DNA from: Omnitrophica bacterium GWA2_41_15
Lineage (GTDB): Bacteria; Omnitrophota; Gorgyraeia; Gygaellales; UBA12090
Assembly (NCBI GenBank): GCA_919902675.1
Contig: CAKKRH010000013.1
Coordinates: 47,239-111,238, forward strand
DNA: 64,000 nt
Reading direction: 5' to 3'
The notes under the pieces were generated by a model. It ran no database searches. It saw only the letters and a list, made by a program, of their open reading frames with translations, and was not told the DNA's origin. The position numbers were made by a program, and so were the translations under genes. Below are positions 24,722-46,429 of this stretch, in pieces (position 1 is the first letter of the stretch; each line of letters begins with the position of its first letter).

Positions 24722-25378
24722 TTATCGATCCGTAAAGATACGTTGAACAGAGTCATCTTGTTTATTTGGGTTATATGCGTTAGGAATTTCATTTATCGTT
24801 TTACTGCCTTCCCACAACGCATTATCTAAAGTAATGATGTGCAAACCATCTTTGGGAATATCATAAAAATCCATCAGGTATTTCGCAGTAGCCAAAAGAA
24901 TCAAATCAGCAATCTGGGCATTCTTCTGTTTCTTGAAAAACATCTCAAAAAACCGGTCAACGGCGATAATTATATCTCGACATGTTGAAACATCATGGAC
25001 ATCTATCTTACGCTTAGCTGATTTCAATCTCCTGACACTGGTTGTAATATAACTACTCATTTTGTTACGCGCATTATTAAAATCCACGGGGCTTTTGAAT
25101 AACTTATCCTCATAAAACTTTTTGGCTAATACTTTAAACGATTCAGCGATGCATATGTCTGGAATATATATTTTTCCCTTCCCTTTTTTAATTTGCCTAT
25201 CAATTTCATCCCACCATTTCATGCTATTTTCAACACGCGTTTTTTCACGCGCGAATTTGTCCCCCAAAAGGTTATTATATAGCCTCGCAGGGATAAACTT
25301 GTTTACTAAAAAATTAGCATCTACCAAATAGTAATTTTTACCATCTGGATGCCGCATAATTTTTCTAACTCGTGCCAT
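24722..25378 (-). CDS. PIN-like domain protein embedded between hsdS and hsdR
   Basis: The acidic residues fall in a PIN-typical pattern: YYLVDANFLV (Asp), ICIAESFKVL (Glu), IADLILLATAKYL (Asp) and HIITLDNALW (Asp). The gene lies 4 nt after hsdS and 15 nt before hsdR. Confidence 0.55.
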   Translation of the reverse strand: MARVRKIMRHPDGKNYYLVDANFLVNKFIPARLYNNLLGDKFAREKTRVENSMKWWDEIDRQIKKGKGKIYIPDICIAESFKVLAKKFYEDKLFKSPVDFNNARNKMSSYITTSVRRLKSAKRKIDVHDVSTCRDIIIAVDRFFEMFFKKQKNAQIADLILLATAKYLMDFYDIPKDGLHIITLDNALWEGSKTINEIPNAYNPNKQDDSVQRIFTDR

Positions 25379-30712: not shown

Positions 30713-30946
30713 TTAATACCAATCCTCATAGTACACATTCTCACCTTGCTTATAGGACTTTATGGGGGTAATTCCGCCTATACACCGCTGGCACATCAAG
30801 CCGTAATCGGTGGTAAAACAGTCCTCTATCGCATTGGCCTCATGGTCTATGAGGTCACAATTGCAATAGTCACAGACCCGCAGTTCGCCTTTAGGCACAT
30901 CCACCCGGATAATCCAGGGTTCCTCTTCTTTACGCATAGTTATCAC
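30713..30946 (-). CDS. Small Cys-rich (CxxC...CxxC) putative zinc-binding protein
   Basis: The cysteine pairs are VCDYCNCDL and LMCQRCIG. The gene overlaps the upstream gene by 4 nt. Confidence 0.45.
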   Translation of the reverse strand: MITMRKEEEPWIIRVDVPKGELRVCDYCNCDLIDHEANAIEDCFTTDYGLMCQRCIGGITPIKSYKQGENVYYEDWY

Positions 30947-31218
30947 CTCCTTTCTATCGTCTTTTTGATGATAATCTCGTTATCTTTCGCCGTAAGGGTA
31001 ACCTCATCGCCCAGTTCAAAGCCAAAATGTAACAGCCATAGCCCTGAAACCCTGATGGCCGGAACATATTTGGTATTCTGGGGAAAGGCGAAGACTTTAA
31101 GGGATTTACCCTGCCTGCGCTTCTCAAGGTCCTTGATACGGCTGATGAGGGCCAGGGTCTTGCCTCTTCCTTCCATCTGGGAATATCTCTCTAATTGCTG
31201 AAGAGTCAGATAAGACAT
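30943..31218 (-). CDS. SymE-like (AbrB/SpoVT-fold) toxin family protein
   Basis: PAIRVSGLWLLHFGFELGDEVTLTAKDNEIIIKK resembles the SymE family signature (xLxLxGxWLxxAGFxxGxxVxV). Confidence 0.5.
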   Translation of the reverse strand: MSYLTLQQLERYSQMEGRGKTLALISRIKDLEKRRQGKSLKVFAFPQNTKYVPAIRVSGLWLLHFGFELGDEVTLTAKDNEIIIKKTIERR

Positions 31219-31509
31219 CTAAACCACCTCCTCTCTTAAAAAATCCCGGTTCCTCTGAACAAACCCCTCAAGGGTCTCCGAAGCCAAAGGGACAAAACCC
31301 GCTGAAATAAGCCGGGAGACATCCCTCATCAGACGACGCTCCTGCCGCAAGGCGGACATCCCGAATGAACGGGAAGGCAGATCCTCTTGCCAAGTGCGAT
31401 ACTGGGAATCGCGCGAGACAGAATACCTCTGCATACAGCCATCCACCCGAAGCAGGCCGTCCTCAAATTTCTCACCTCTCTTTAAACTATCTTTTCTTTC
31501 TTGCCGCAT
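31219..31509 (-). CDS. Hypothetical 96-aa protein
   Basis: A strong SD (AGGAGGG) lies upstream of the ATG at 31509. I recognise no motif. Confidence 0.5.
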   Translation of the reverse strand: MRQERKDSLKRGEKFEDGLLRVDGCMQRYSVSRDSQYRTWQEDLPSRSFGMSALRQERRLMRDVSRLISAGFVPLASETLEGFVQRNRDFLREEVV

Positions 31510-32380
31510 ACGCTAAACCCTCCTTTCTTTTTTGAAAAACAAAAGGCCCAATGATTTAACCCGAAGGGGCGGTTTTGCTTTGAGGCACCCCGCAAAGCAA
31601 AATCCCCCGACGCACAAGCGTCGGGGGAAGCCTTTTGTCAAGAAAACCGAAGGCGGACTTTGAGGCAGACCACAAAGTCCGTTCTTAAGAAAAATTGAGA
31701 CTCCCCGAAGGGTCAGCCCCGCGTAAGCGGGGCTGATGCCCAGCCCTTTGAGGCAGACCACAAAGGGCTGGGTAGAGGCGAATTTTTCTTAAGAATTTTC
31801 TTGATAAAAGTTCCCGCCGAAGGCGGGGCCGCCGGAGCACGCCAGTGCGCAGGCGGAAAATCATTGGGCATAAATAACATAAAAAAGAAAGGAGGGTGCC
31901 GGAATCAAGGCAAGAAAGAAGCCGAAGTAAAATGTTGGTGAGAAATTTGAGGGTGTCTTGAAACGGGCTCAAGCAGGGCCTATGCGATGGTTTTTGGCGG
32001 AGCGGAAAAACGTTGGGGTCTGGGGAATTTCAAATTCCCCAGCGGGGTTTGGGGCAGAGCCCCAAGAACATACGCGCTATGCTGACAAGACGAGCTGGCT
32101 TCTGGACGAAGGACAGAACTGCCGAAAGGAGAGGCGGCGCAGGTAACGGAAGCCCGAAGGGCTGAAGTCCGAGCACGCCTATCCTGAAGGCAGTTGCCTC
32201 GCGAAGCGGGGCAAGCCAGCGGAGCTGGATGCTAAGGGGCAGGCGGCCCAGCCTGCCCGCCCGCCGACCAAGGCGGGCAGATGAGCGAGCGCCAAGCGAG
32301 CGGGGGAGTGAGACGAGCGGCAGCGAGGCGAACGGCGACTGCGCCACGCCGCCAGCCCGCCCAAGCGGGCGGTGGAATCC
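31510..32380. other. GC-rich, ORF-poor, hairpin-dense non-coding block (candidate large structured RNA or protein-binding hairpin array)
   Basis: At least 12 GC-rich stem-loops. Three share the loop and loop-proximal stem CTTTG-AGGCA(G/C)(A/C)CC(A/G)-CAAAG but have different outer stems (31573..31602, 31655..31680, 31739..31772). Others are CCCCCGACGC-ACAA-GCGTCGGGGG (31604..31627), TCAGCCCCGC-GTAA-GCGGGGCTGA (31713..31736), CCCGCC-GAA-GGCGGG (31813..31827) and the palindrome GGGGAATTT-C-AAATTCCCC (32022..32040). The tracked ORFs here are Arg/Pro/Gly/Ala-rich shadows. Confidence 0.6.
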
Positions 32381-32920
32381 TTAATCCCTGCTCAAGATCG
32401 TATCAAACTCTTTTTGATATTTCCTGATTACTTCCGTGTCGGATATAAATATGGCGTTTTCGTAATTGAAGAACTCGGCATTATCTGACCAATTATAAGA
32501 GCCGGTAAAAAGCAGGGTTTTGTCAAATATGGCGAATTTATTGTGCATTATACCTCGGCTCTTGCCACGCCTTATCTTTACATCAAAGCCGGAATCAATA
32601 AGTAATTGAACAACTGAATGCGCGCCCTTATACTGGCGGCTGTCGGCGATAATTCTTATCTTTAGCCCCCTCTTCTTCGCATTTTCAAGAGAAGCTTTTA
32701 TTTCCTGGGAGGTAAAGTCAAATATGGCTATATCTATTGAAAGGCGGGAATTATCAATGGCCTTAATAATGCGGCTTCTTATATTGCCTTCGGGGGAAAA
32801 ATAGACTTCGGTATGATGGGCGGCCGATTTTTGGGGAGAGACCGCACAGCCGGAAACGGCGAGTGAAATAATTAAGAGGCATAGGCTTAGAAAACGCGGT
32901 TTTCTCAACTGCATAAGCAC
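32381..32920 (-). CDS. Phospholipase D-family (Nuc-like) endonuclease, lipoprotein/secreted
   Basis: The HKD motif is MHNKFAIFD and is followed by GSYNWS. The N-terminal LCLLIISLAVSGC is a lipobox-like signal. Confidence 0.8.
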   Translation of the reverse strand: MLMQLRKPRFLSLCLLIISLAVSGCAVSPQKSAAHHTEVYFSPEGNIRSRIIKAIDNSRLSIDIAIFDFTSQEIKASLENAKKRGLKIRIIADSRQYKGAHSVVQLLIDSGFDVKIRRGKSRGIMHNKFAIFDKTLLFTGSYNWSDNAEFFNYENAIFISDTEVIRKYQKEFDTILSRD

Positions 32921-33131: not shown

Positions 33132-34488
33132 GGTAGTATACTGAATTGTGTGTAAATTAGCTTTACCTTTGAATTAAAAAGGCGTATCTTTCTGTTTGAA
33201 GACTTATTAACCCGGGCCTGACAGCCCTAACCAGAAAGGATACGCCAATGGAATACGTAGTTACCGAACATAGTTTACGCCGCCGATGGGCTAGAGTCAA
33301 TGAGTTTTTTCAATCTACCCAAGAAAAAGACTTCTGGGTGGATATCAACCAATACCTGCGCCGCCTGGTTAAAGGCATTATCGAAGTCAGCCTTGACGAA
33401 GAAATGATCCAATACATGCAGACACAGCCTTATCAAAGAACCAACGGATCAAGCCGCCTGGATTACCGTAACGGATACTATTGCCGCAATCTCGATACTA
33501 CCTTCGGCCCTGTGGAGCAGATTGCCGTCCCCCGCTCAAGGCAAGGCTTATTCAGGCCGTCTGTTTTCCGGCGCTACCAAAGAACGACAGGAGGCCGTTA
33601 ATGATGTCATCTGCAATGTCTTCCTGCGCGGGATATCCACCAGGGATGTCGCGGGGGCGTTAAAACCGCTGCTCAACACTGCTCTCTCGGCCTCTACGGT
33701 ATCCAGAATAACAAAAAGGCTCAATCCTTTAGTCAAAGAATTCCACCGGCGCAAGCTGCTTGATGAATATCAGTTCCTGTTCCTGGACGGCATTACCATC
33801 TCGGTAAAGGGCGCGCTTAAGGCCAAGAAAATACTTGTGCTGGTTGCCTACGGTATTACCATCTTCGGCAAAAAAGAGCTGATTGCCTTCAGAATCGCCA
33901 ATGCCGAATCAACTCCTGCCTGCGAAAGCTTCTTAAATGACCTGTTTAGGCGCGGTCTGGAGGGGAAAAATCTCAAGATGGTTATCACCGATGGCTCTAA
34001 AGGCTTCATCGCGGCTATTGAGTTAGTCTATCCTCAGGCCAAACACCAGCGCTGCTGGGTGCATAAACTGCGTAATGCTACTAAACGCCTTAAAAAGGCG
34101 GATATTAAGCCTTTTAAGGCGGATGCGCGTAAGATTTATAATGCCTCGACTCATCGGGAAGCGGTTGCTGCCTTTAAAAACCTTCGTAAATACTGGCATA
34201 ACATTGCTCCCGAAGCGGTAAAATGCCTGGAACGAGATCTTGATGAGCTCTTATCTTTTTTAACAATCCCTATTAAAGAGCAATTCCATGCCTTTATTCG
34301 CCGTCAGATTCGCACCACCAATATCATTGAACGCTCATTCCGTGAAGTAAGGCGCAGAACCAGGCCTATGGGATGTTTTACCAATTATGACAGCGTAAGC
34401 AGGATTATTTACGCTATCTTTAACCGTCTAAACTCCAAATGGGAAGAGAAACCTTTAATACAATTTACACAATTTATTTGACATTACC
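33132..34488 (+). mobile_element. IS256-family insertion sequence with a 9-bp target-site duplication
   Basis: The terminal inverted repeats are GGTAGTATACTGAATTGTGTGTAAATT (left) and AATTTACACAATTTATTTGACATTACC (right). A direct TTCTAGTTC sits at 33123..33131 and again at 34489..34497. The element encodes a Transposase_mut-type protein. Confidence 0.85.
33248..34481 (+). pseudogene. IS256-family transposase split into two frames (33248..33601 and 33522..34481)
   Basis: The N-terminal frame ends ...LFRPSVFRRYQRTTGGR*. The family-typical continuation RQEAVNDVICNVFLRGISTRDV...ITDGSKGF...QRCWVHKLRN...TTNIIERSFRE lies in the +1 frame. The switch point is near CCAAAGAACGAC at about 33575..33590. 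Confidence 0.75.
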
Positions 34489-42749: not shown

Positions 42750-43029
42750 GCACTCTGAAATTGCAGGAATAATGGGAAAAACCGTTAAGATGATGAATTC
42801 CCTTCTCCCTCATCTTAACAATACCAATGACGATGCCGCGACCCAGGAAGCAATACAGGAATATTTATCAATACGCTCGGAATTAAGATGGCTGTGCGAT
42901 AAGTTTGAGCACAGCCTTTTAAATGACCCGGATATCCAGTGGATCTGGAAAGATAAGCCGAATATGAGCTGGCTTAATATCTACGACCGGATTTCTTTTA
43001 TTAACCGCAAACTATTTACTATCCTCTAA
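42742..43029 (+). CDS. Hypothetical 95-aa protein between the excisionase-like and recombinase genes
   Basis: ORF with overlapping start and stop junctions on both sides, which suggests translational coupling. Confidence 0.45.
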   Translation: MLEHSEIAGIMGKTVKMMNSLLPHLNNTNDDAATQEAIQEYLSIRSELRWLCDKFEHSLLNDPDIQWIWKDKPNMSWLNIYDRISFINRKLFTIL

Positions 43030-44564
43030 TGAAAACCGCGCTAAAACAGGAAACCATAAAAGCGGCCATCTATGTGCGCGTCTCAACCGATGAGCAGGCA
43101 CAATACGGCTACTCCATTGAGGCCCAAAAGGAAAAACTCCTCGCCTTCTGCAAAAGCCAGGACTGGGAAGTATACAAAACATATGTTGATGACGGCTTCC
43201 GGGCTACGACCCTTAACCGACCCGAGATACAAAAGCTTATAGAAGAATCCAACTCCGGGAAATTTAACATGGTGGTTTTTTACAAATTAGACCGGCTTTC
43301 CCGCTCGGTAAAAGACCTAAGCTATCTTATAGAGACTTTTGAGAAAAATAATACCGCGATAAAGTCCATCACTGAGCCTTTTGACACTTCTTCCCCTCCC
43401 GGCAAGTTAATGTTTAATATGCTCGGCTCTTTCGCGCAATTTGAACGAGAGTTAATCGGGGAACGCACACGATTGGGTGTCGGCAGGCGCGTCAGAGAAG
43501 GAAAATGGACAACCTCTCCCCCTTTTGGCTATAGCATGATAAACGGCGAACTGGTGATTAATGAAAAGGATGTCCCCTTTTACAAACGGATCGTGGAATT
43601 ATGCTTATATCATAATTTCGGGACAAAGCTTATAGCAATGAAATTAAACGAAGAGGACAAAATCACCAAACGGGCCGGCAAATGGTCTGATTCAACCATA
43701 TGGAGAATACTAACCAATCCTGTTTATTACGGCATGGTGAGATGGCACGATGAAATTTACCAGGGTAAACACGAACCGATCATCGCTAAAGAGGAATTTG
43801 AAACGATACAAAAAAGGCTCCGCGAGAAGAACAGGACTCCCGAAAGAAGCCATTCCAGCCCGAACATCCTTAACGGACTTATTGCCTGCGGGCTTTGCAA
43901 TTCAAATCTTACACCCTCCAAAGGGAAAAAGATATACCGCTATTATTCCTGTTTAGGCAGGCAGAAAGGATGTAGTTTACACTATATCAGAACTGATAAA
44001 CTGCACGATGCGATATTGGCTCAGATAAATGAAATAGGCGAGAATCCCCGCATTATTCAGGATTGCATAGAAGAACACAACAAATCTCAATTTTCTAGGC
44101 TCTCCAAGCTGGAAAAAGAGCTTCTTTGTGCCAAAAGAGAGATTATTGAGTTAAACAAGAAAAAAGAAAGAAAAACCGAATGGCTGTCTGAGAATCTTCC
44201 TGATAAAAATGTAGCTTCAATTATTGGAGAAGAAATTCAACAGGCCACAAAACAGATTGAAGAATTGAAAAAAAAGGCTGCCGGAATCGAGGAAACGATT
44301 GAAAAAGAGAATATCAGCGGGGTTAAGCCGGAAATTATAAGCGGATTCCTATTGCGCTTTAAAGACATGTTTAATAAGCTTGATATTTATCAAAAAAGGT
44401 TGTTTATGCAGGCTATAGTAAAGAACATCACTGTCTACAATAAAGATAAAATCCGGCTGTCTTTAGCCCTTCCTTCCGGCCCTCAAAAAGCTGTGGCACA
44501 GAATGAAGTTTTCAAGATTAAACAGCCGGATTTTTACCCTTTCTATGCTGAATGGGGTGGGTAA
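43029..44564 (+). CDS. Large serine recombinase (integrase)
   Basis: The resolvase catalytic domain reads AAIYVRVSTDEQ...YKLDRLSRS. It is followed by a recombinase domain, a Cys-rich zinc ribbon (CGLCNS...YYSC) and a coiled coil. The last 9-12 nt overlap the tRNA-His 3' end on the opposite strand. Confidence 0.9.
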   Translation: MKTALKQETIKAAIYVRVSTDEQAQYGYSIEAQKEKLLAFCKSQDWEVYKTYVDDGFRATTLNRPEIQKLIEESNSGKFNMVVFYKLDRLSRSVKDLSYLIETFEKNNTAIKSITEPFDTSSPPGKLMFNMLGSFAQFERELIGERTRLGVGRRVREGKWTTSPPFGYSMINGELVINEKDVPFYKRIVELCLYHNFGTKLIAMKLNEEDKITKRAGKWSDSTIWRILTNPVYYGMVRWHDEIYQGKHEPIIAKEEFETIQKRLREKNRTPERSHSSPNILNGLIACGLCNSNLTPSKGKKIYRYYSCLGRQKGCSLHYIRTDKLHDAILAQINEIGENPRIIQDCIEEHNKSQFSRLSKLEKELLCAKREIIELNKKKERKTEWLSENLPDKNVASIIGEEIQQATKQIEELKKKAAGIEETIEKENISGVKPEIISGFLLRFKDMFNKLDIYQKRLFMQAIVKNITVYNKDKIRLSLALPSGPQKAVAQNEVFKIKQPDFYPFYAEWGG

Positions 44565-44630
44565 CGGGATTTGAACCCGCGACAACTTGAGCCACAGTCA
44601 AGCGCTCTACCGAGCTGAGCTATACCCACC
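44553..44630 (-). tRNA. tRNA-His (GTG), with encoded G-1 and CCA
   Basis: Manual fold of GGTGGGTATAGCTCAGCTCGGTAGAGCGCTTGACTGTGGCTCAAGTTGTCGCGGGTTCAAATCCCGTTACCCACCCCA. The acceptor is GTGGGTA/TACCCAC, the anticodon loop is CTGTGGC, the T-loop is TTCAAAT, and G-1 pairs with C73. Confidence 0.9.
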
Positions 44631-44686
44631 ATATTATTAAATGGCAAAATTAAAAACCGCGGAAAAGCTTACTGCTGAACGATTAT

Positions 44687-45754
44687 TTATTCTTTCTTAA
44701 AAATTTTCTTCAGGCTCTTGCCGAGCTCTTCAATCTCGCTCACCGCGCCTCTTACCTTGTCCACCACGTTTTCCGGAGGCTGGGCTATTATATTCTCAAC
44801 CGCGGTCTGGGCGATGATGCCTTTAAGATTCAACAGGTCAAAACGTGGATTATCCAGCTTAGTGCGTATGGGAAAATCAAAGATTATCTTTCCTTCGGTA
44901 TCGGAGAGAAAATTAACGATATCGGCAAATAATTCCGGCCTGTCCGCCTGGCCTTCAGGCTGTCGGGTCTGCTTCAGGAGCTCGCCATGGCATTTGATGA
45001 TCAGATCGTTATTCTCGGCTTTTAAATCCGCGGTCAAATCAAGCCTGGCGGAAAGTATTTTTTTAACCGGAACCGCGTCCTGAAAATAGGGGGCCAGTGC
45101 GGCTATGTCTATTTCGGACAACTCCAGCTTCCCATCCATATTTTTTGGCCCAAAGTCTATCCAGCCGGAGGCCTTAAGGCCGCCACCAGGGCGGTTATCC
45201 GCGCTTCTTAAGGCCGCGGATAAATTAAAATTAGTATACAAGGAGGTGGGAGGAAAAGCGATCTTGGCGATATCTATATCTATGCTATCCACATTTACCT
45301 TGTAGCCTTCGGGGCTGAGCTTTTTATCGATAAAAGTAAATTTGCCATCAACCACCTTTAATCCGGCTAAAAGAAAGGGCGGCTGTTTGCCTTTAGACTC
45401 TAAAACAGGCAGGTTAATTCTTCCTTCGGCATCTTTAACCAGGGTAATTTCGGGTTTTATTACTTTTAGCTCATTCAAGATAATTTTCCCGGCTAGGAAA
45501 CCCAGTAGGCTGGGGGAAAGAGATATGGAATCCGCTTTAAACAAATCCCCCACCTCAAGCCCTGTGATAGACACGGAAAGCGGCAGGCTAAAGCTTATTC
45601 TTTCCAGCTTCGCCTTAAGCTTAAGGTTCTGCTCAATCTGACCGGCCACAATGGCCTTGCCGAAGATTATAAAGAGGATATTGGCGGCCAGGAAAATAAA
45701 AAACAATATGCCAGCCAGCCAAGCCACTACCTTAAGAATTGTTTTTCTTTTCAT
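44687..45754 (-). CDS. AsmA-like / DUF748-family membrane protein
   Basis: An N-terminal TM anchor (ILKVVAWLAGILFFIFLAANILFIIF) is followed by a repetitive beta-rich body, as in AsmA/DUF748 proteins. Confidence 0.6.
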   Translation of the reverse strand: MKRKTILKVVAWLAGILFFIFLAANILFIIFGKAIVAGQIEQNLKLKAKLERISFSLPLSVSITGLEVGDLFKADSISLSPSLLGFLAGKIILNELKVIKPEITLVKDAEGRINLPVLESKGKQPPFLLAGLKVVDGKFTFIDKKLSPEGYKVNVDSIDIDIAKIAFPPTSLYTNFNLSAALRSADNRPGGGLKASGWIDFGPKNMDGKLELSEIDIAALAPYFQDAVPVKKILSARLDLTADLKAENNDLIIKCHGELLKQTRQPEGQADRPELFADIVNFLSDTEGKIIFDFPIRTKLDNPRFDLLNLKGIIAQTAVENIIAQPPENVVDKVRGAVSEIEELGKSLKKIFKKE

Positions 45755-45774
45755 AGTTTTTTACCTGTTTTATA

Positions 45775-45848
45775 CGCGCCCGGGCCGGATCGAACGGCCA
45801 ACAACCGGCTTAGAAGGCAGGTGCTCTATCCAATTGAGCTACGGGCGC
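45775..45848 (-). tRNA. tRNA-Arg (TCT)
   Basis: Manual fold of GCGCCCGTAGCTCAATTGGATAGAGCACCTGCCTTCTAAGCCGGTTGTTGGCCGTTCGATCCGGCCCGGGCGCG. The anticodon loop is CTTCTAA, and the anticodon stem has one U-C mismatch. CCA is not encoded. Confidence 0.85.
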
Positions 45849-45852
45849 AATT

Positions 45853-45952
45853 TAGTTGACAGTTGACAGATGACAGTTGACAGATGAAGATGATAACTCA
45901 CAGTTAACAGATGATAGTTGACAGTAAACAGATCACAGATTACAGTTGACAG
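45853..45952. repeat. Degenerate heptanucleotide tandem array (GTTGACA / GATGACA ... about 14 units)
   Basis: GTTGACAGTTGACAGATGACAGTTGACAGATGAAGATGATAACTCACAGTTAACAGATGATAGTTGACAGTAAACAGATCACAGATTACAGTTGACAG. The array supplies the last codons of the four-helix-bundle gene. Confidence 0.85.
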
Positions 45953-46310
45953 AATCAGAAGATAATGAACTAATAAGACCGTTAATCATTTTTGCTAACT
46001 CGTTGCATTCCTTAGTTAATTCTTCAGAGATCGCTTTCTTAACATAATCCTCTCTAAGAGATATTTCTAACAATGGAACACATTCATAAATAGAACCTCT
46101 GGCAACTCTGAGAAACTGAATAAAATCTTTTTTATGATACCTGCTACTGCCCTCTGCTATATTACAGGATACAGATACCGCGGCCCTTCTCATTTGAGAC
46201 GTAAGGCCAAATATCTCATTATTTGGAAAATTTTTAGTTATTTGGTAAACCTTATCGGCAAAATTAATTGCTTTTTTGTATACTTCCAATTTCTCAAAGC
46301 CAAACCCCAT
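45933..46310 (-). CDS. Four-helix-bundle protein (TIGR02436; '23S rRNA intervening-sequence protein' family)
   Basis: FEKLEVYKKAINFADKVYQITKNFPNNEIFGLTSQMRRAAVSVSCNIAEGSSRYHKKDFIQFLRVARGSIYE is the family signature. Confidence 0.85.
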   Translation of the reverse strand: MGFGFEKLEVYKKAINFADKVYQITKNFPNNEIFGLTSQMRRAAVSVSCNIAEGSSRYHKKDFIQFLRVARGSIYECVPLLEISLREDYVKKAISEELTKECNELAKMINGLISSLSSDSVNCNL

Positions 46311-46350
46311 AGCTTATCTGTGAACTGTCAACCGTGAACTGTGAACTAAT
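46311..46350. repeat. Heptanucleotide array (CTGTGAA / CTGTCAA), inverted relative to 45853..45952
   Basis: The sequence is CTTATCTGTGAACTGTCAACCGTGAACTGTGAACTAAT. Its reverse complement contains GTTGACAGTTCACAG. Confidence 0.8.
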
Positions 46351-46351
46351 A

Positions 46352-46429
46352 TGGTCGGGGCGGCAGGATTTGAACCTACGGCCTCTTGCTCCCAAAGCAA
46401 GCGCTCTAGCCAAGCTAAGCTACGCCCCG
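46352..46429 (-). tRNA. tRNA-Pro (TGG), CCA encoded
   Basis: Manual fold of CGGGGCGTAGCTTAGCTTGGCTAGAGCGCTTGCTTTGGGAGCAAGAGGCCGTAGGTTCAAATCCTGCCGCCCCGACCA. The anticodon loop is TTTGGGA. Confidence 0.9.

Follow-up and report, generated by a model that had tools for sequence, protein, structure and literature searches.

The locus and its folded block

The block studied here occupies positions 31510-32380 of the window (the whole 64-kb stretch of DNA that was analysed) and is bounded by a 96-aa gene and a PLD-family nuclease gene (Table 1). The AlphaFold model of the 96-aa protein is confident for its C-terminal helices only, and a Foldseek search of the model against the PDB gave no match. The SymE-like gene that follows begins 291 nt from the element described below. 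Other genes in the neighbourhood encode DUF932, a ThiF/JAB (PRTRC-like) cassette, a DprA-like SLOG protein and restriction-modification functions, alongside the SymE toxin and PLD nuclease. The window island looks phage-like, and its genes include those for a large serine recombinase and a Phage_rep_O protein. Neither the window nor the examined parts of related contigs showed a relaxase, T4SS or oriT.

Table 1. Features of the block and adjoining genes (window coordinates; for features marked -, sequences and apices are those of the minus strand unless stated)
Feature	Position	Strand	Remarks
SymE-like (AbrB-fold) gene	30943..31218	-	second in operon; PF08845, E 4.9e-07, 30.2 bits (cutoff 29)
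96-aa gene	31219..31509	-	weak HTH/SciP-like match; usual first gene downstream of element
Core element	31494..31920	-	universally conserved part of family; nhmmer and alignments against 48 loci
H0 3' arm	31494..31505	-	GGCAAGAAAGAA; codons 2-5 of 96-aa ORF
H1 3' arm (Shine-Dalgarno region)	31517..31533	-	AAAAAAGAAAGGAGGGU
H2 3' arm	31546..31557	-	AAAUCAUUGGGC; followed by U-rich tract
Motif hairpin 1	31567..31608	-	apex C-GG-GGUG-CC-U (plus strand A-GG-CACC-CC-G)
Variable perfect hairpin	31603..31628		CCCCCGACGC / GCGUCGGGGG; another stem at same position in relatives
H3 3' arm	31632..31646	-	inside GUUUUCUUGACAAAAG, which contains TTGACA
Motif hairpin 2	31654..31681	-	apex U-GG-UCUG-CC-U
H4 3' arm	31682..31696	-	AAUUUUUCUUAAGAA
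21-mer UUCGGGGAGUCUCAAUUUUUC	31689..31709	-	3' half of cUUCGg hairpin and start of H4'
Variable perfect hairpin	31713..31736		loop GUAA on plus strand, UUAC on minus strand
Motif hairpin 3	31739..31772	-	same apical motif; stem CCCAGCCCUUUG
H4 5' arm	31781..31795	-	pairs with 31682-31696
H3 5' arm	31796..31810	-	helix irregularity present
Two hairpins at H2/H3 junction	31811..31857		some lineages only
H2 5' arm	31858..31869	-	GCCCAAUGAUUU
H1 5' arm (anti-SD)	31881..31897	-	ACCCUCCUUUCUUUUUU
H0 5' arm	31909..31920	-	UUCUUUCUUGCC; pairs with 31494-31505
Distal domain	31921..32180	-	subfamily only (window, L188, L189, L190, L197, L218, L222)
73% GC hairpin cluster	32181..32380		lineage-specific; directly after PLD stop codon
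PLD-family NucT-like nuclease gene	32381..32920	-	ends at distal edge of block; same synteny in L190

An earlier, sequence-only reading had described the block as non-coding, and this held: no credible gene was found at 31510-32380, where the ORFs (82, 95, 105, 62, 51 and 61 aa) are rich in Arg, Pro, Gly and Leu and matched no Pfam family. The block had also been called more GC-rich than its flanks. This is clearly true of the distal half but not of the proximal half: GC is 0.513 at 31510-31920, 0.562 at 31921-32180 and 0.73 at 32181-32380, compared with 0.506 already in the left flank (31000-31509), 0.42 in the PLD gene and 0.439 in the whole window. Folding confirmed the reported density of hairpins. 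The RNA minimum free energy (MFE) of the block is -442 kcal/mol on the plus strand (z -16.0 against shuffles) and -405 kcal/mol on the minus strand (z -12.3); none of 20 shuffles folded as well, and 24 inverted-repeat pairs were found, comprising local hairpins and nested long-range arms. CCGAAGG, which reads cUUCGg on the minus strand, occurs 15 times in the window, and the five occurrences inside the block are all on the plus strand.

A cmscan search, proposed in the same reading, was run with Rfam 15 and identified no family, T-box, C4 and riboswitches included. At gathering thresholds the 64-kb window yielded 3 tRNAs, all outside the block; at E <=10 the block gave scattered sub-threshold matches (the best had 24 bits against a cutoff of 40), and a permissive scan of 12 homologous loci revealed no recurring family. 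The suggested kinship with GOLLD and ROOL RNAs thus fails for the block and for the 12 homologous loci. The broader proposal was supported: the block is a folded nucleic-acid element that is conserved and resides on a mobile element.

The core element and its family

Comparison of sequences indicates that the block is one copy of a previously uncatalogued family of modular structured elements. Homologues were recovered from at least 48 metagenomic loci, six via the 96-aa protein and 42 via the 21-mer UUCGGGGAGUCUCAAUUUUUC, which is unchanged in 6/6 of the loci found through the 96-aa gene (alignment A1). A common skeleton is present in all six and in the 42. The core, about 330-430 nt across the family, has a nested fold with several branches that extends from H0 to H0' and takes in the Shine-Dalgarno sequence (SD), the ATG (31509-31507) and the first codons of the 96-aa gene.

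Five long-range nested helices (H0-H4), backed by compensatory changes, make up this skeleton. The arms of H0 (12 nt, inverted-repeat search), H1 (17 nt; 31517-31533 with 31881-31897), H2 (12 nt) and H4 (15 nt) are each 100% complementary in the window, and H2 is 95% paired in alignment A3. H3 is irregular, with an A.C mismatch in the window copy and a bulged G or A in most relatives; its GUUUUCUUGACAAAAG is invariant in A1 and unchanged in 20 of 21 A3 sequences, the sole change being C-to-T in L207. On the gene-sense (window minus) strand, H2, H3 and H4 stack as a quasi-continuous duplex of about 43 bp, from whose 3' strand the hairpins project. Perfect hairpins that vary among relatives occupy the gaps from one helix to the next. 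Pairing of H0 and H1 is present in all full-length homologues, as is an anti-SD of the CCUCUUUCUUUUU type. The earlier reading had overlooked the nested long-range helices, as well as the identity of the proximal helix arm with the ribosome-binding site (RBS) of the adjacent minus-strand gene.

Covariation, another check that had been proposed, was found in both the long-range helices and the motif hairpins. In A3 (21 sequences, stitched skeleton), 97.1% of cells are paired; shuffles give 94.7%, and sliding the partners gives no more than 70%. Two-sided changes affect 8 pairs and 30 cells, values reached by 2/500 and 0/500 shuffles respectively, and the covariation score is 0.133 versus 0.090 (0/500 shuffles). 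Pairs changed on both sides lie in H0 (3) and H4 (4), so that the fold-back pairing shows compensatory maintenance; variation in H1 is mostly one-sided and the register of this helix is ambiguous. In alignment A4 (46 distinct motif hairpins), pairing holds in 93% of cells, compensatory change affects 8 of 10 pairs and the score is 0.589 versus 0.131 (0/500 shuffles).

These motif hairpins include three that had been noticed for their shared loop and differing distal stems (31578-31597, 31658-31677 and 31746-31765). They are real and form a true family whose stems covary; there are 3 occurrences of the pattern TTTGAGGCANNCCNCAAA, where 0.01 is expected. Across the family, the apical motif U-GG-NNUG-CC-U is found on one to four hairpins per element. 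Homologous loci are separated by hairpin-sized indels, and the insertion site at the H2/H3 junction is also used in L197, L218, L222, L203 and L217. The hairpin preceding H2' has a UUCG, UACG or UCCG loop in the six-locus alignment. On the minus strand, the hairpin at 31603-31628 is followed by a U-rich tract and is terminator-like. A loop-junction pseudoknot (UGCC/GGCA) was considered and rejected; it is absent in the window lineage and shows no covariation.

The distal domain includes a hairpin at 32049-32065 and a palindrome hairpin at 32020-32042. The palindrome had been reported before and is slightly longer than was claimed, with 11-nt arms (32020-32030 and 32032-32042) that are 100% complementary; relatives form this stem with other complementary arms (GGGGAAUUU, GGGGCAUUUUU and CCCUUGACAUUUU). 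No homologues of 32181-32380 were found outside identical copies of the same genome.

The element is tied to the genes that follow it, its orientation always matching theirs. An SD and start codon follow the element in 44 of 49 copies examined. Three unrelated gene families lie downstream (96-aa, SpoVG-like and SLOG-like), and the element supplies their SD, ATG and first ~5 codons; beyond about 6 codons the genes diverge. This fixation to the 5' end of the downstream minus-strand gene had not been foreseen by the sequence-only reading. In relatives, 2-3 co-oriented copies occur per contig, every one of them ahead of an operon of the same island. The 64-kb window holds one copy, and within this window and these relatives classification as a dispersed palindromic repeat (MITE, REP or BOX) was rejected. 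Operons without SymE are also preceded by the element. We tentatively propose that the family forms the 5' leader of the first accessory-operon gene in phage-like or ICE-like integrative islands of uncultivated bacteria.

Blastn (word size 11) with the block and the majority-type core found no match among 72,556 plasmids or in a phage collection, and tblastn with the 97-aa and DUF932-like proteins found none among the plasmids. Two phage contigs carry hairpin clusters with the same apical motif, ~300-450 bp upstream of a small-ORF/terL cluster. Other motif matches were set aside. Single-motif matches in viral contigs were mostly chance matches inside genes; two-motif matches in genome contigs were Anaerolineaceae REP-like palindromes, a coding repeat and tandem repeats, and are probably unrelated; and triple-motif matches in viral contigs (>180 loci), nearly all collagen-like or other coding tandem repeats, were rejected by checking the flanking stems.

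A proposed leader RNA and competing readings

The placement of the outer helices over the SD and start codon argues for a cis-acting leader or cassette rather than a free-standing ncRNA. H1 (17 bp) and H0 (12 bp), both perfect, cover these signals. The reading we favour, tentatively, is a 5' leader RNA in the gene sense that would keep the translation start locked; its motif hairpins would be sites for factor binding or processing. A transcript of the window minus strand would fold into H0-H4, and H0 and H1 would pair the SD, start codon and first codons with the upstream anti-SD. The full-length leader would thereby hold the translation start closed (fold-back inhibition), and may also insulate the gene from read-through transcripts. 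Expression would require the lock to be opened, either by a factor bound at the conserved motif hairpins (the 96-aa and SpoVG-like proteins are candidates) or through cutting of the long perfect duplex by a double-strand-specific RNase. The element probably controls the timing with which the downstream genes' products are made. Scans recognised no promoter upstream of the element, and no alternative or open conformation and no ligand was identified for the leader model.

Which strand folds was addressed in several ways. The G.U share of MFE pairs is 3.0% in sense and 4.1% in antisense, compared with 13.6% in shuffles; local hairpins have almost no wobble pairs, and the motif hairpins have 2 G.U cells in 460. 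Old RNA families are seldom so poor in wobble pairs. With nearly all stem pairs being Watson-Crick on either strand, the usual strand test is removed. A comparison of G.U with A.C pairs was tried, and its initial sense-favouring count arose at the ends of helices and from a slipped register in H1, which is U/A-rich; pairs common to both strand predictions give counts of 9 versus 11. A tetraloop census was likewise uninformative, because each UNCG is read as C-GNA-G from the opposite strand. The cUUCGg loops, which fall on the sense strand, and the UUCG, UACG or UCCG loop before H2' are hints of the sense strand. Other signals favour the antisense (window plus) strand, on which the recurrent A.C mismatch of H3 (sense) would become a G.U pair and which has the lower predicted MFE in 31 of 34 members with RNA parameters and in 34 of 34 with DNA parameters. 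This strand is 60% purine, and purine-richness is typical of structured RNAs. Scans of three loci for sigma-70 promoters and terminators gave nothing consistent.

One alternative, which we consider unlikely, is a single-stranded DNA element of the Frpo/ssi kind, in which the template (window plus) strand folds while the island is single-stranded during transfer or replication. The fold would then serve as a duplex-mimicking promoter and/or priming site from which the downstream 'establishment' genes are expressed before the complementary strand is made. Stems of near-perfect Watson-Crick pairing, with almost no wobble on either strand, speak for this, and the plus strand is the more stable in all 34 members when DNA parameters are used. 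Plus-strand loops read C-GNA-G, and GCGAAGC occurs once (32203-32209); both are DNA mini-hairpin motifs of very high stability. Genes of the kinds that neighbour the element (e.g. DUF932 and PRTRC-like) also occur on conjugative elements or in leading regions, and relatives have several co-oriented copies, each ahead of an operon; Frpo is multi-copy in plasmid leading regions (PMC11541004). The TTGACA inside H3 is invariant, although it lies on the gene-sense arm. Neither arm has a conserved -10 hexamer at a distance of 16-18 nt from a -35; on the non-template arm, TTGCAC-17-TATTGT is found in the majority subtype only. Looping-out of a hairpin (P-c) to form a TTGACA/TAnnnT promoter was not adopted, as the spacing of 18-22 nt depends on the hairpin end chosen; the window copy has no TAnnnT hexamer. 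It also counts against single-stranded DNA that the island looks phage-like, with no relaxase or T4SS gene seen, and that none of the 72,556 plasmids, which presumably include Frpo-bearing F-like plasmids, showed sequence similarity. Furthermore, a DNA promoter has no need of a hairpin base that, like this one, extends over the SD, start codon and first codons.

The leader and single-stranded DNA ideas can be combined, although we rate the combination a shade less probable still. The element would be a non-proteobacterial counterpart of Frpo, a large modular cassette folding as single-stranded DNA that equips the establishment or anti-defence operons of an uncultivated integrative-element family with a promoter or a priming site as well as an RBS and start codon. 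Its conserved-apex hairpin, which recurs in intergenic hairpin clusters of phages, would serve a host or element protein as a new kind of recognition module, and the duplex-derived transcript would silence itself by SD sequestration.

We think it distinctly improbable that the plus strand yields a structured RNA, free-standing or cis-antisense, that overlaps and masks the translation start of the minus-strand gene; this corresponds to the large ncRNA raised by the earlier reading. SymR overlaps and masks the symE translation start, and the operon here includes a SymE-like gene; operons without SymE, however, also follow the element. The plus strand folds better (z -16 versus -12, and the lower MFE in 31 of 34 relatives), is purine-rich (60%), and has GNRA loops, which read GUAA in the window copy and GCAA in relatives; one of its conserved hairpins contains tandem G.A. 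Yet this strand showed no Rfam match and neither a promoter nor a terminator. Since the downstream genes diverge after ~6 codons, an antisense promoter would have no conserved place; it must sit in coding regions that are unrelated between copies past that point.

Mostly selfish or neutral palindromic DNA (compare BOX, Correia and REP units), residing in a permissive spacer and kept perfect by template switching and without a regulatory function of its own, seems to us more improbable again. Modules have been gained, lost, duplicated and swapped between relatives at fixed junctions, the stems are perfect palindromes, and those within a lineage share words, for example CCCTTGAC...GTCAAGGG in L217, L218 and L190. 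In L218 and L222 a GIY-YIG gene lies inside one hairpin, assemblies often break within the element, and the cluster at 32181-32380 is lineage-specific. These features would suit selfish DNA, but the AT-rich skeleton and apical motif are invariant while the adjacent protein has diverged to 54-69% identity. The compensatory changes in the long-range helices, the fixed position relative to the start codon and the single, undispersed copy in the 64-kb window argue the same way.

A site acting in double-stranded DNA (island-repressor operators, a site of recombination or cruciform formation, or a signal for packaging or replication) is very unlikely: strand-symmetric perfect palindromes would suit dimeric DNA-binding proteins or cruciforms, same-apex hairpin clusters lie upstream of the terL region in two phage contigs and the 96-aa protein has a weak HTH-like match, but the stems covary freely with the apex alone conserved, unlike sequence-specific operators, complementarity spanning 350 bp has no role in duplex DNA, and there are no iterons or tandem repeats and no terminase among the annotated window genes. 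The origin or packaging role raised earlier found no positive evidence in the window. A nut-like antitermination array, also raised, was not borne out, as no boxA-like sequence (YGCTCTTTA-like) was found on either strand of 31494-32380.

Comparison with known systems and significance

The proposed leader resembles fold-back leaders of mobile-element genes, such as those of the IS10 transposase, the locked mRNAs of the hok family and the RNase III-processed lambda N leader. Shared with these are long-range pairing of the SD and start codon to upstream sequence, a mobile-element setting (here beside a toxin-like SymE gene) and a long perfect duplex that is a possible RNase III substrate. In contrast, the element is far larger (about 330-870 nt) and modular, has conserved apical-motif hairpins, is repeated ahead of several unrelated operons and has no identified antisense partner or processing site.

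Frpo/ssi elements are described in PMC11541004 (where Masai and Arai 1997 is cited) as single-stranded DNA promoters of conjugative-plasmid leading regions. The present element is similar in its large fold, its several co-oriented copies directly upstream of establishment or anti-defence-type genes, its nearly wobble-free, duplex-like stems and the TTGACA within a stem. It differs in having no sequence similarity and no conserved -10 at promoter spacing, in being a branched multi-hairpin structure where Frpo is one long hairpin, in the lack of conjugation genes seen near it and in the inclusion of the SD and start codon in its fold.

GOLLD, ROOL, HEARO/omega RNA and OLE share its size range, many hairpins, multi-stem junctions and carriage by mobile elements; however, no covariance model matched at any threshold, and the element is tied to a downstream translation start and has almost no G.U pairs.

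At the level of single hairpins, protein-binding sites with conserved loops and free stems are known in the MS2/PP7 coat-protein operators, lambda boxB and the GGA loops of CsrB/RsmZ. The motif hairpins likewise have variable, covarying stems under an invariant apex, in one to four copies per element, and to our eye the plus-strand apex (unpaired purine, 2 bp, tetraloop) recalls the MS2 operator. Their apex sequence nevertheless matches none of these, and the partner is only putative.

Modular intergenic repeats such as pneumococcal BOX, Neisseria Correia and enterobacterial ERIC offer a further parallel, with a variable number of hairpin units, terminal inverted repeats and a 5' untranslated location. 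Unlike them, the element shows no dispersal, with one copy in 64 kb; it invariably adjoins a start codon, to which it is fused, and it retains its skeleton across distantly related lineages.

In conclusion, this study describes a new large structured element of about 330-870 nt, present at at least 48 loci and absent from RNA-family libraries. The family brings with it a defined skeleton and a portable hairpin motif common to some phages. The nearly wobble-free stems raise the question of whether RNA, single-stranded DNA or both is the form in which it works; should that be DNA, the idea of single-strand promoters would extend beyond enterobacterial plasmids. The element is a cassette rather than the leader of one gene, providing an RBS, start codon and first codons for unrelated genes. 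Its recurrence ahead of every accessory operon suggests a shared control cassette for the cargo of the islands, such as genes of toxin, nuclease, ubiquitin-like and restriction types. These cargo genes could be found, and switched, by way of such a cassette.

Properties of the block and its island setting

The stretch 31510-32380 had been described from sequence alone as GC-rich, non-coding and crowded with hairpins, and our analysis agrees. Its ORFs (51-105 aa, both strands) have an Arg-, Pro-, Gly- and Leu-rich composition and no Pfam match. GC content climbs stepwise from 0.513 (31510-31920) through 0.562 (31921-32180) to 0.73 (32181-32380), against a window mean of 0.439. Both strands fold far better than dinucleotide shuffles, with minimum free energies of -442 kcal/mol (plus strand, z -16.0) and -405 kcal/mol (minus strand, z -12.3). 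The three shared-loop hairpins were recovered (3 matches versus 0.01 expected), as was the palindrome. Of the 15 occurrences of CCGAAGG in the window, which read cUUCGg on the minus strand, five fall within the block, each on the plus strand. The proposed kinship with large non-coding RNAs found no backing: at gathering thresholds, Rfam 15 matched only three tRNAs in the window, outside the block, and a permissive scan of the block gave nothing meaningful. A blastn search of the block against 50,697 phage and 72,556 plasmid records returned no match. Neither Rfam 15 nor the annotated phage and plasmid collections contain the element.

The window stems from a metagenome of Hainich groundwater, with identical copies in several samples, and this region of it is a phage-like integrative island. 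Beyond the flanking genes (see table) are a broken IS256-family transposase and YdjM, then an AAA ATPase, a Phage_rep_O protein and a GemA-like protein; a large serine recombinase gene abuts a tRNA gene, likely marking the attachment end of the island. Genes for capsid, terminase, relaxase or type IV secretion were not seen among the annotated genes of the window. The SymE-like gene begins one base past the 96-aa gene's stop codon, a layout suggestive of translational coupling, and no SymR-like antisense gene could be recognised.

Features of the block, its long-range helices and the surrounding island
Feature	Position	Strand	Remark
H0	31494-31505 with 31909-31920		
H1	31517-31533 with 31881-31897		17 bp, perfect
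H2	31546-31557 with 31858-31869		
H3	31632-31646 with 31796-31810		
H4	31682-31696 with 31781-31795		
Shared-loop hairpins	31578-31597, 31658-31677, 31746-31765		
Terminator-like hairpin	31603-31628	minus	perfect, 11 bp, GC-rich
Palindrome	32020-32042		
NucT-like PLD nuclease gene	ends at 32381	minus	block flank
96-aa gene	31219-31509	minus	block flank
SymE-like gene	30943-31218	minus	second in operon
Two small ORFs		minus	block flank
Cas4-like PD-(D/E)XK nuclease gene		minus	block flank
Type I restriction-modification system		minus	block flank
218-aa gene	24722-25378	minus	weak PIN-domain match; between hsdS and hsdR
IS256-family (Transposase_mut) gene	33248-34481	plus	two overlapping frames (117 + 319 aa), probably a frameshifted insertion; between PLD gene and the island's YdjM and Poly_export genes
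Serine recombinase/tRNA region	43029-46429		recombinase gene ends in or beside first tRNA gene
tRNA genes	44556-44629, 45775-45848, 46355-46429		last two follow recombinase

Nested helices at the translation start and their relatives

The sequence-only reading had overlooked five nested long-range helices (H0-H4). Read on the minus strand (gene-sense), the arm 31517-31533 is the Shine-Dalgarno (SD) region of the 96-aa gene, whose ATG lies at 31509-31507; the SD, the AUG and codons 2-5 all fall within helices.

Among 5.8 billion proteins, just six relatives of the 96-aa protein turned up (identity 96-54%). A homologous structured region lies directly upstream of the relative in all five contigs with more than 100 nt of upstream DNA, and at one locus the PLD gene is likewise retained on the far side of an 870-nt spacer. 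Searching with a 21-mer that is invariant in the 96-aa loci, TTCGGGGAGTC(N)TCAATTTTTC, brought up 42 more loci in metagenomes and none in viral contigs. All loci found share one skeleton. In gene-sense order it comprises UUCUUGCC (H0); the anti-SD CCUCUUUCUUUUU (H1); GCCCAAGAUUGA (H2), CUUUUGUGCAAGAAAA (H3) and UCCUUGAGAAUAAUU (H4), contiguous; one or two hairpins and a cUUCGg hairpin; H4' and a hairpin; GUUUUCUUGACAAAAG (H3') and a hairpin; UUCAAAUCAUUGGGC (H2') and a U-rich tract; AAAAGAAAGGAGG, the SD (H1'); and the AUG with the first codons (H0').

An SD and ORF follow the element in 44 of 49 copies, the exceptions being truncated contigs or degenerate copies. This ORF belongs to the 96-aa family in most copies, encodes at seven loci a SpoVG-family protein whose N-terminal extension is supplied by the element, and in one partial copy encodes a SLOG/DprA-like protein. 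Profile searches found a single copy in the window and two to three co-oriented copies, about 3.8 kb apart and each before an operon, in eight related contigs. Operons of these multi-copy relatives encode a SpoVG-like protein with a Ubl/E2-like/ThiF/JAB set, a DUF932 protein and a DUF6876 protein; DUF932 and PRTRC-type cassettes have been reported from integrative conjugative elements. At three related loci (L221:1677-4756, L225 and L223) a copy precedes genes for SpoVG-like, small beta-grasp-like and E2-like proteins, a ThiF-type E1 and a JAB protease with a Cys-rich tail, which is a PRTRC/Bil-like ubiquitin-type cassette with DUF932 and DUF6876 genes nearby. Breaks inside the element, 67-684 nt upstream of the 96-aa gene, recur in independent short-read assemblies (L003, L005, L006, L187, L189, L191-L193), which fits multi-copy or hairpin-rich sequence beyond assembler resolution.

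Only about 31494-31920 forms the universal core. The portion 31921-32180 is kept in a subfamily (the window and loci L188, L189, L190, L197, L218 and L222), where the stem of the palindrome hairpin is swapped for different complementary arms. The most GC-rich part, 32181-32380, had no homologue except identical copies. Copies of the majority subtype have a small ORF whose end lies about 110 nt before the anti-SD (108-120 in copies measured). In L218 (11376-11651), and at the corresponding position in L222, the apical loop of the palindrome-equivalent hairpin houses a GIY-YIG nuclease gene (91 aa, opposite strand) between CCCTTGACATTTT / AAAATGTCAAGGG arms; the word CCCTTGAC...GTCAAGGG also builds other hairpins of these two elements. 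Within the leader of the window, the terminator-like hairpin, so scored by a scan, is followed by UUUUGCUUUG on the gene-sense strand. Since relatives carry a different stem at this position, likewise with a U-rich tract after it, an attenuation step is possible.

Covariation of the skeleton and the shared-loop hairpins

The stems proved to covary. In stitched skeletons of 21 diverse members, with variable hairpins taken out, 97.1% of cells were paired versus 94.7% in shuffles and at most 70% with partners slid; both sides changed in 8 pairs (reached by 2 of 500 shuffles) and 30 cells (0 of 500), and the covariation score was 0.133 versus 0.090 (0 of 500), in a structure derived from the same sequences, where kinship can beat shuffles without structural constraint. 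Four compensatory pairs lie in H4 and three in H0, those in H4 being plain by eye (UUCUUAAG/CUUAAGAA, UUCUUUAG/CUAAAGAA, UUUUUUAG/CUAAAAAA, UCCUUGAG/CUCAAGGA, UCCUUUGG/CCAAAGGA).

We also aligned 46 distinct shared-loop hairpins, six of them from two phage contigs. Their gene-sense apex is (U/C)-GG-NN-U-(G/A)-CC-U with flanks UUU(N) and (N')AAA. Pairing held in 93% of cells, 8 of 10 pairs changed on both sides and the score was 0.589 versus 0.131 (0 of 500 shuffles), the four apex-adjacent pairs having been demanded in selection. For the outer four, which selection had not demanded, pairing still held in 72-91% of cells, and every one of the four Watson-Crick types occurs among them.

Two AT-rich phage contigs (IMG/VR) hold GC-rich hairpin clusters, L023:4930-5200 (z -10.5) and L013:7500-7700 (z -5.3), with four and two hairpins that carry the apical motif on free stems in sense orientation. 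These lie about 300-450 bp upstream of a small-ORF/large-terminase (terL) gene cluster and do not share the window element's skeleton. Motif-like hairpins with a AGGCAGGCC apex also occur in REP-like repeats (GTAGGGAAC-AGGCAGGCC-type palindromes) and an 87-nt tandem repeat of Anaerolineaceae MAGs (L021:7389-7531, L022:1997-3110) and a gammaproteobacterial MAG (L018:1-190); this likeness is probably convergent.

Strand and possible function

The analysis shows a modular fold, conserved and with covarying stems, that is joined to the translation start of the leading gene in island operons. We tentatively favor a gene-sense leader RNA with a fold-back lock on that start, at somewhat less than an even chance. 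Across three gene families the element keeps one orientation and one position with respect to the start codon, helices lie over the start, and cUUCGg/UNCG loops are on the gene-sense strand. Several observations speak against simply taking it as RNA. Stems are almost purely Watson-Crick: the share of G.U among minimum-free-energy pairs is 3.0% (sense) and 4.1% (antisense) versus 13.6% in shuffles, and the motif hairpins have G.U in just 2 of their 460 cells. Wobble counts on pairs predicted for both strands are 9 versus 11. The antisense (plus) strand is purine-rich, and its predicted stability is the higher one in 31 of 34 members under RNA parameters and in 34 of 34 under DNA parameters. On the opposite strand UNCG becomes C-GNA-G, a highly stable mini-hairpin motif in DNA, so the loops cannot tell the strands apart.

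An element acting as single-stranded DNA is unlikely. The fold does resemble Frpo, the single-stranded-DNA promoter of conjugative-plasmid leading regions (PMC11541004), in its near-wobble-free stems, antisense-strand stability and several co-oriented copies before establishment-type genes. On the other side, blastn showed no sequence similarity to the plasmid collection, no conserved -10 was recognised at promoter spacing, and conjugation genes were not seen in the window or the available parts of related contigs. An RNA from the plus strand is quite improbable; downstream genes diverge after about six codons, leaving no conserved site for an antisense promoter. Neutral palindromic modules are very improbable, and sites in duplex DNA, packaging or origin functions included, are the least probable.

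Under the leader reading, the full-length transcript would hold its SD and start codon paired, and this fold-back may also shield the gene from read-through transcription. The H2-H4 duplex of about 43 bp and the conserved-apex hairpins could be where a factor or double-strand-specific RNase opens the lock; ribosomes would then land on the U-rich tract that precedes the SD. Sequestration of a ribosome-binding site by a leader is an already known principle. Novel here are the size and modular construction of the element, its portable hairpin motif, stems nearly free of wobble pairs, and its use as a repeated cassette that donates the start codon to unrelated genes.
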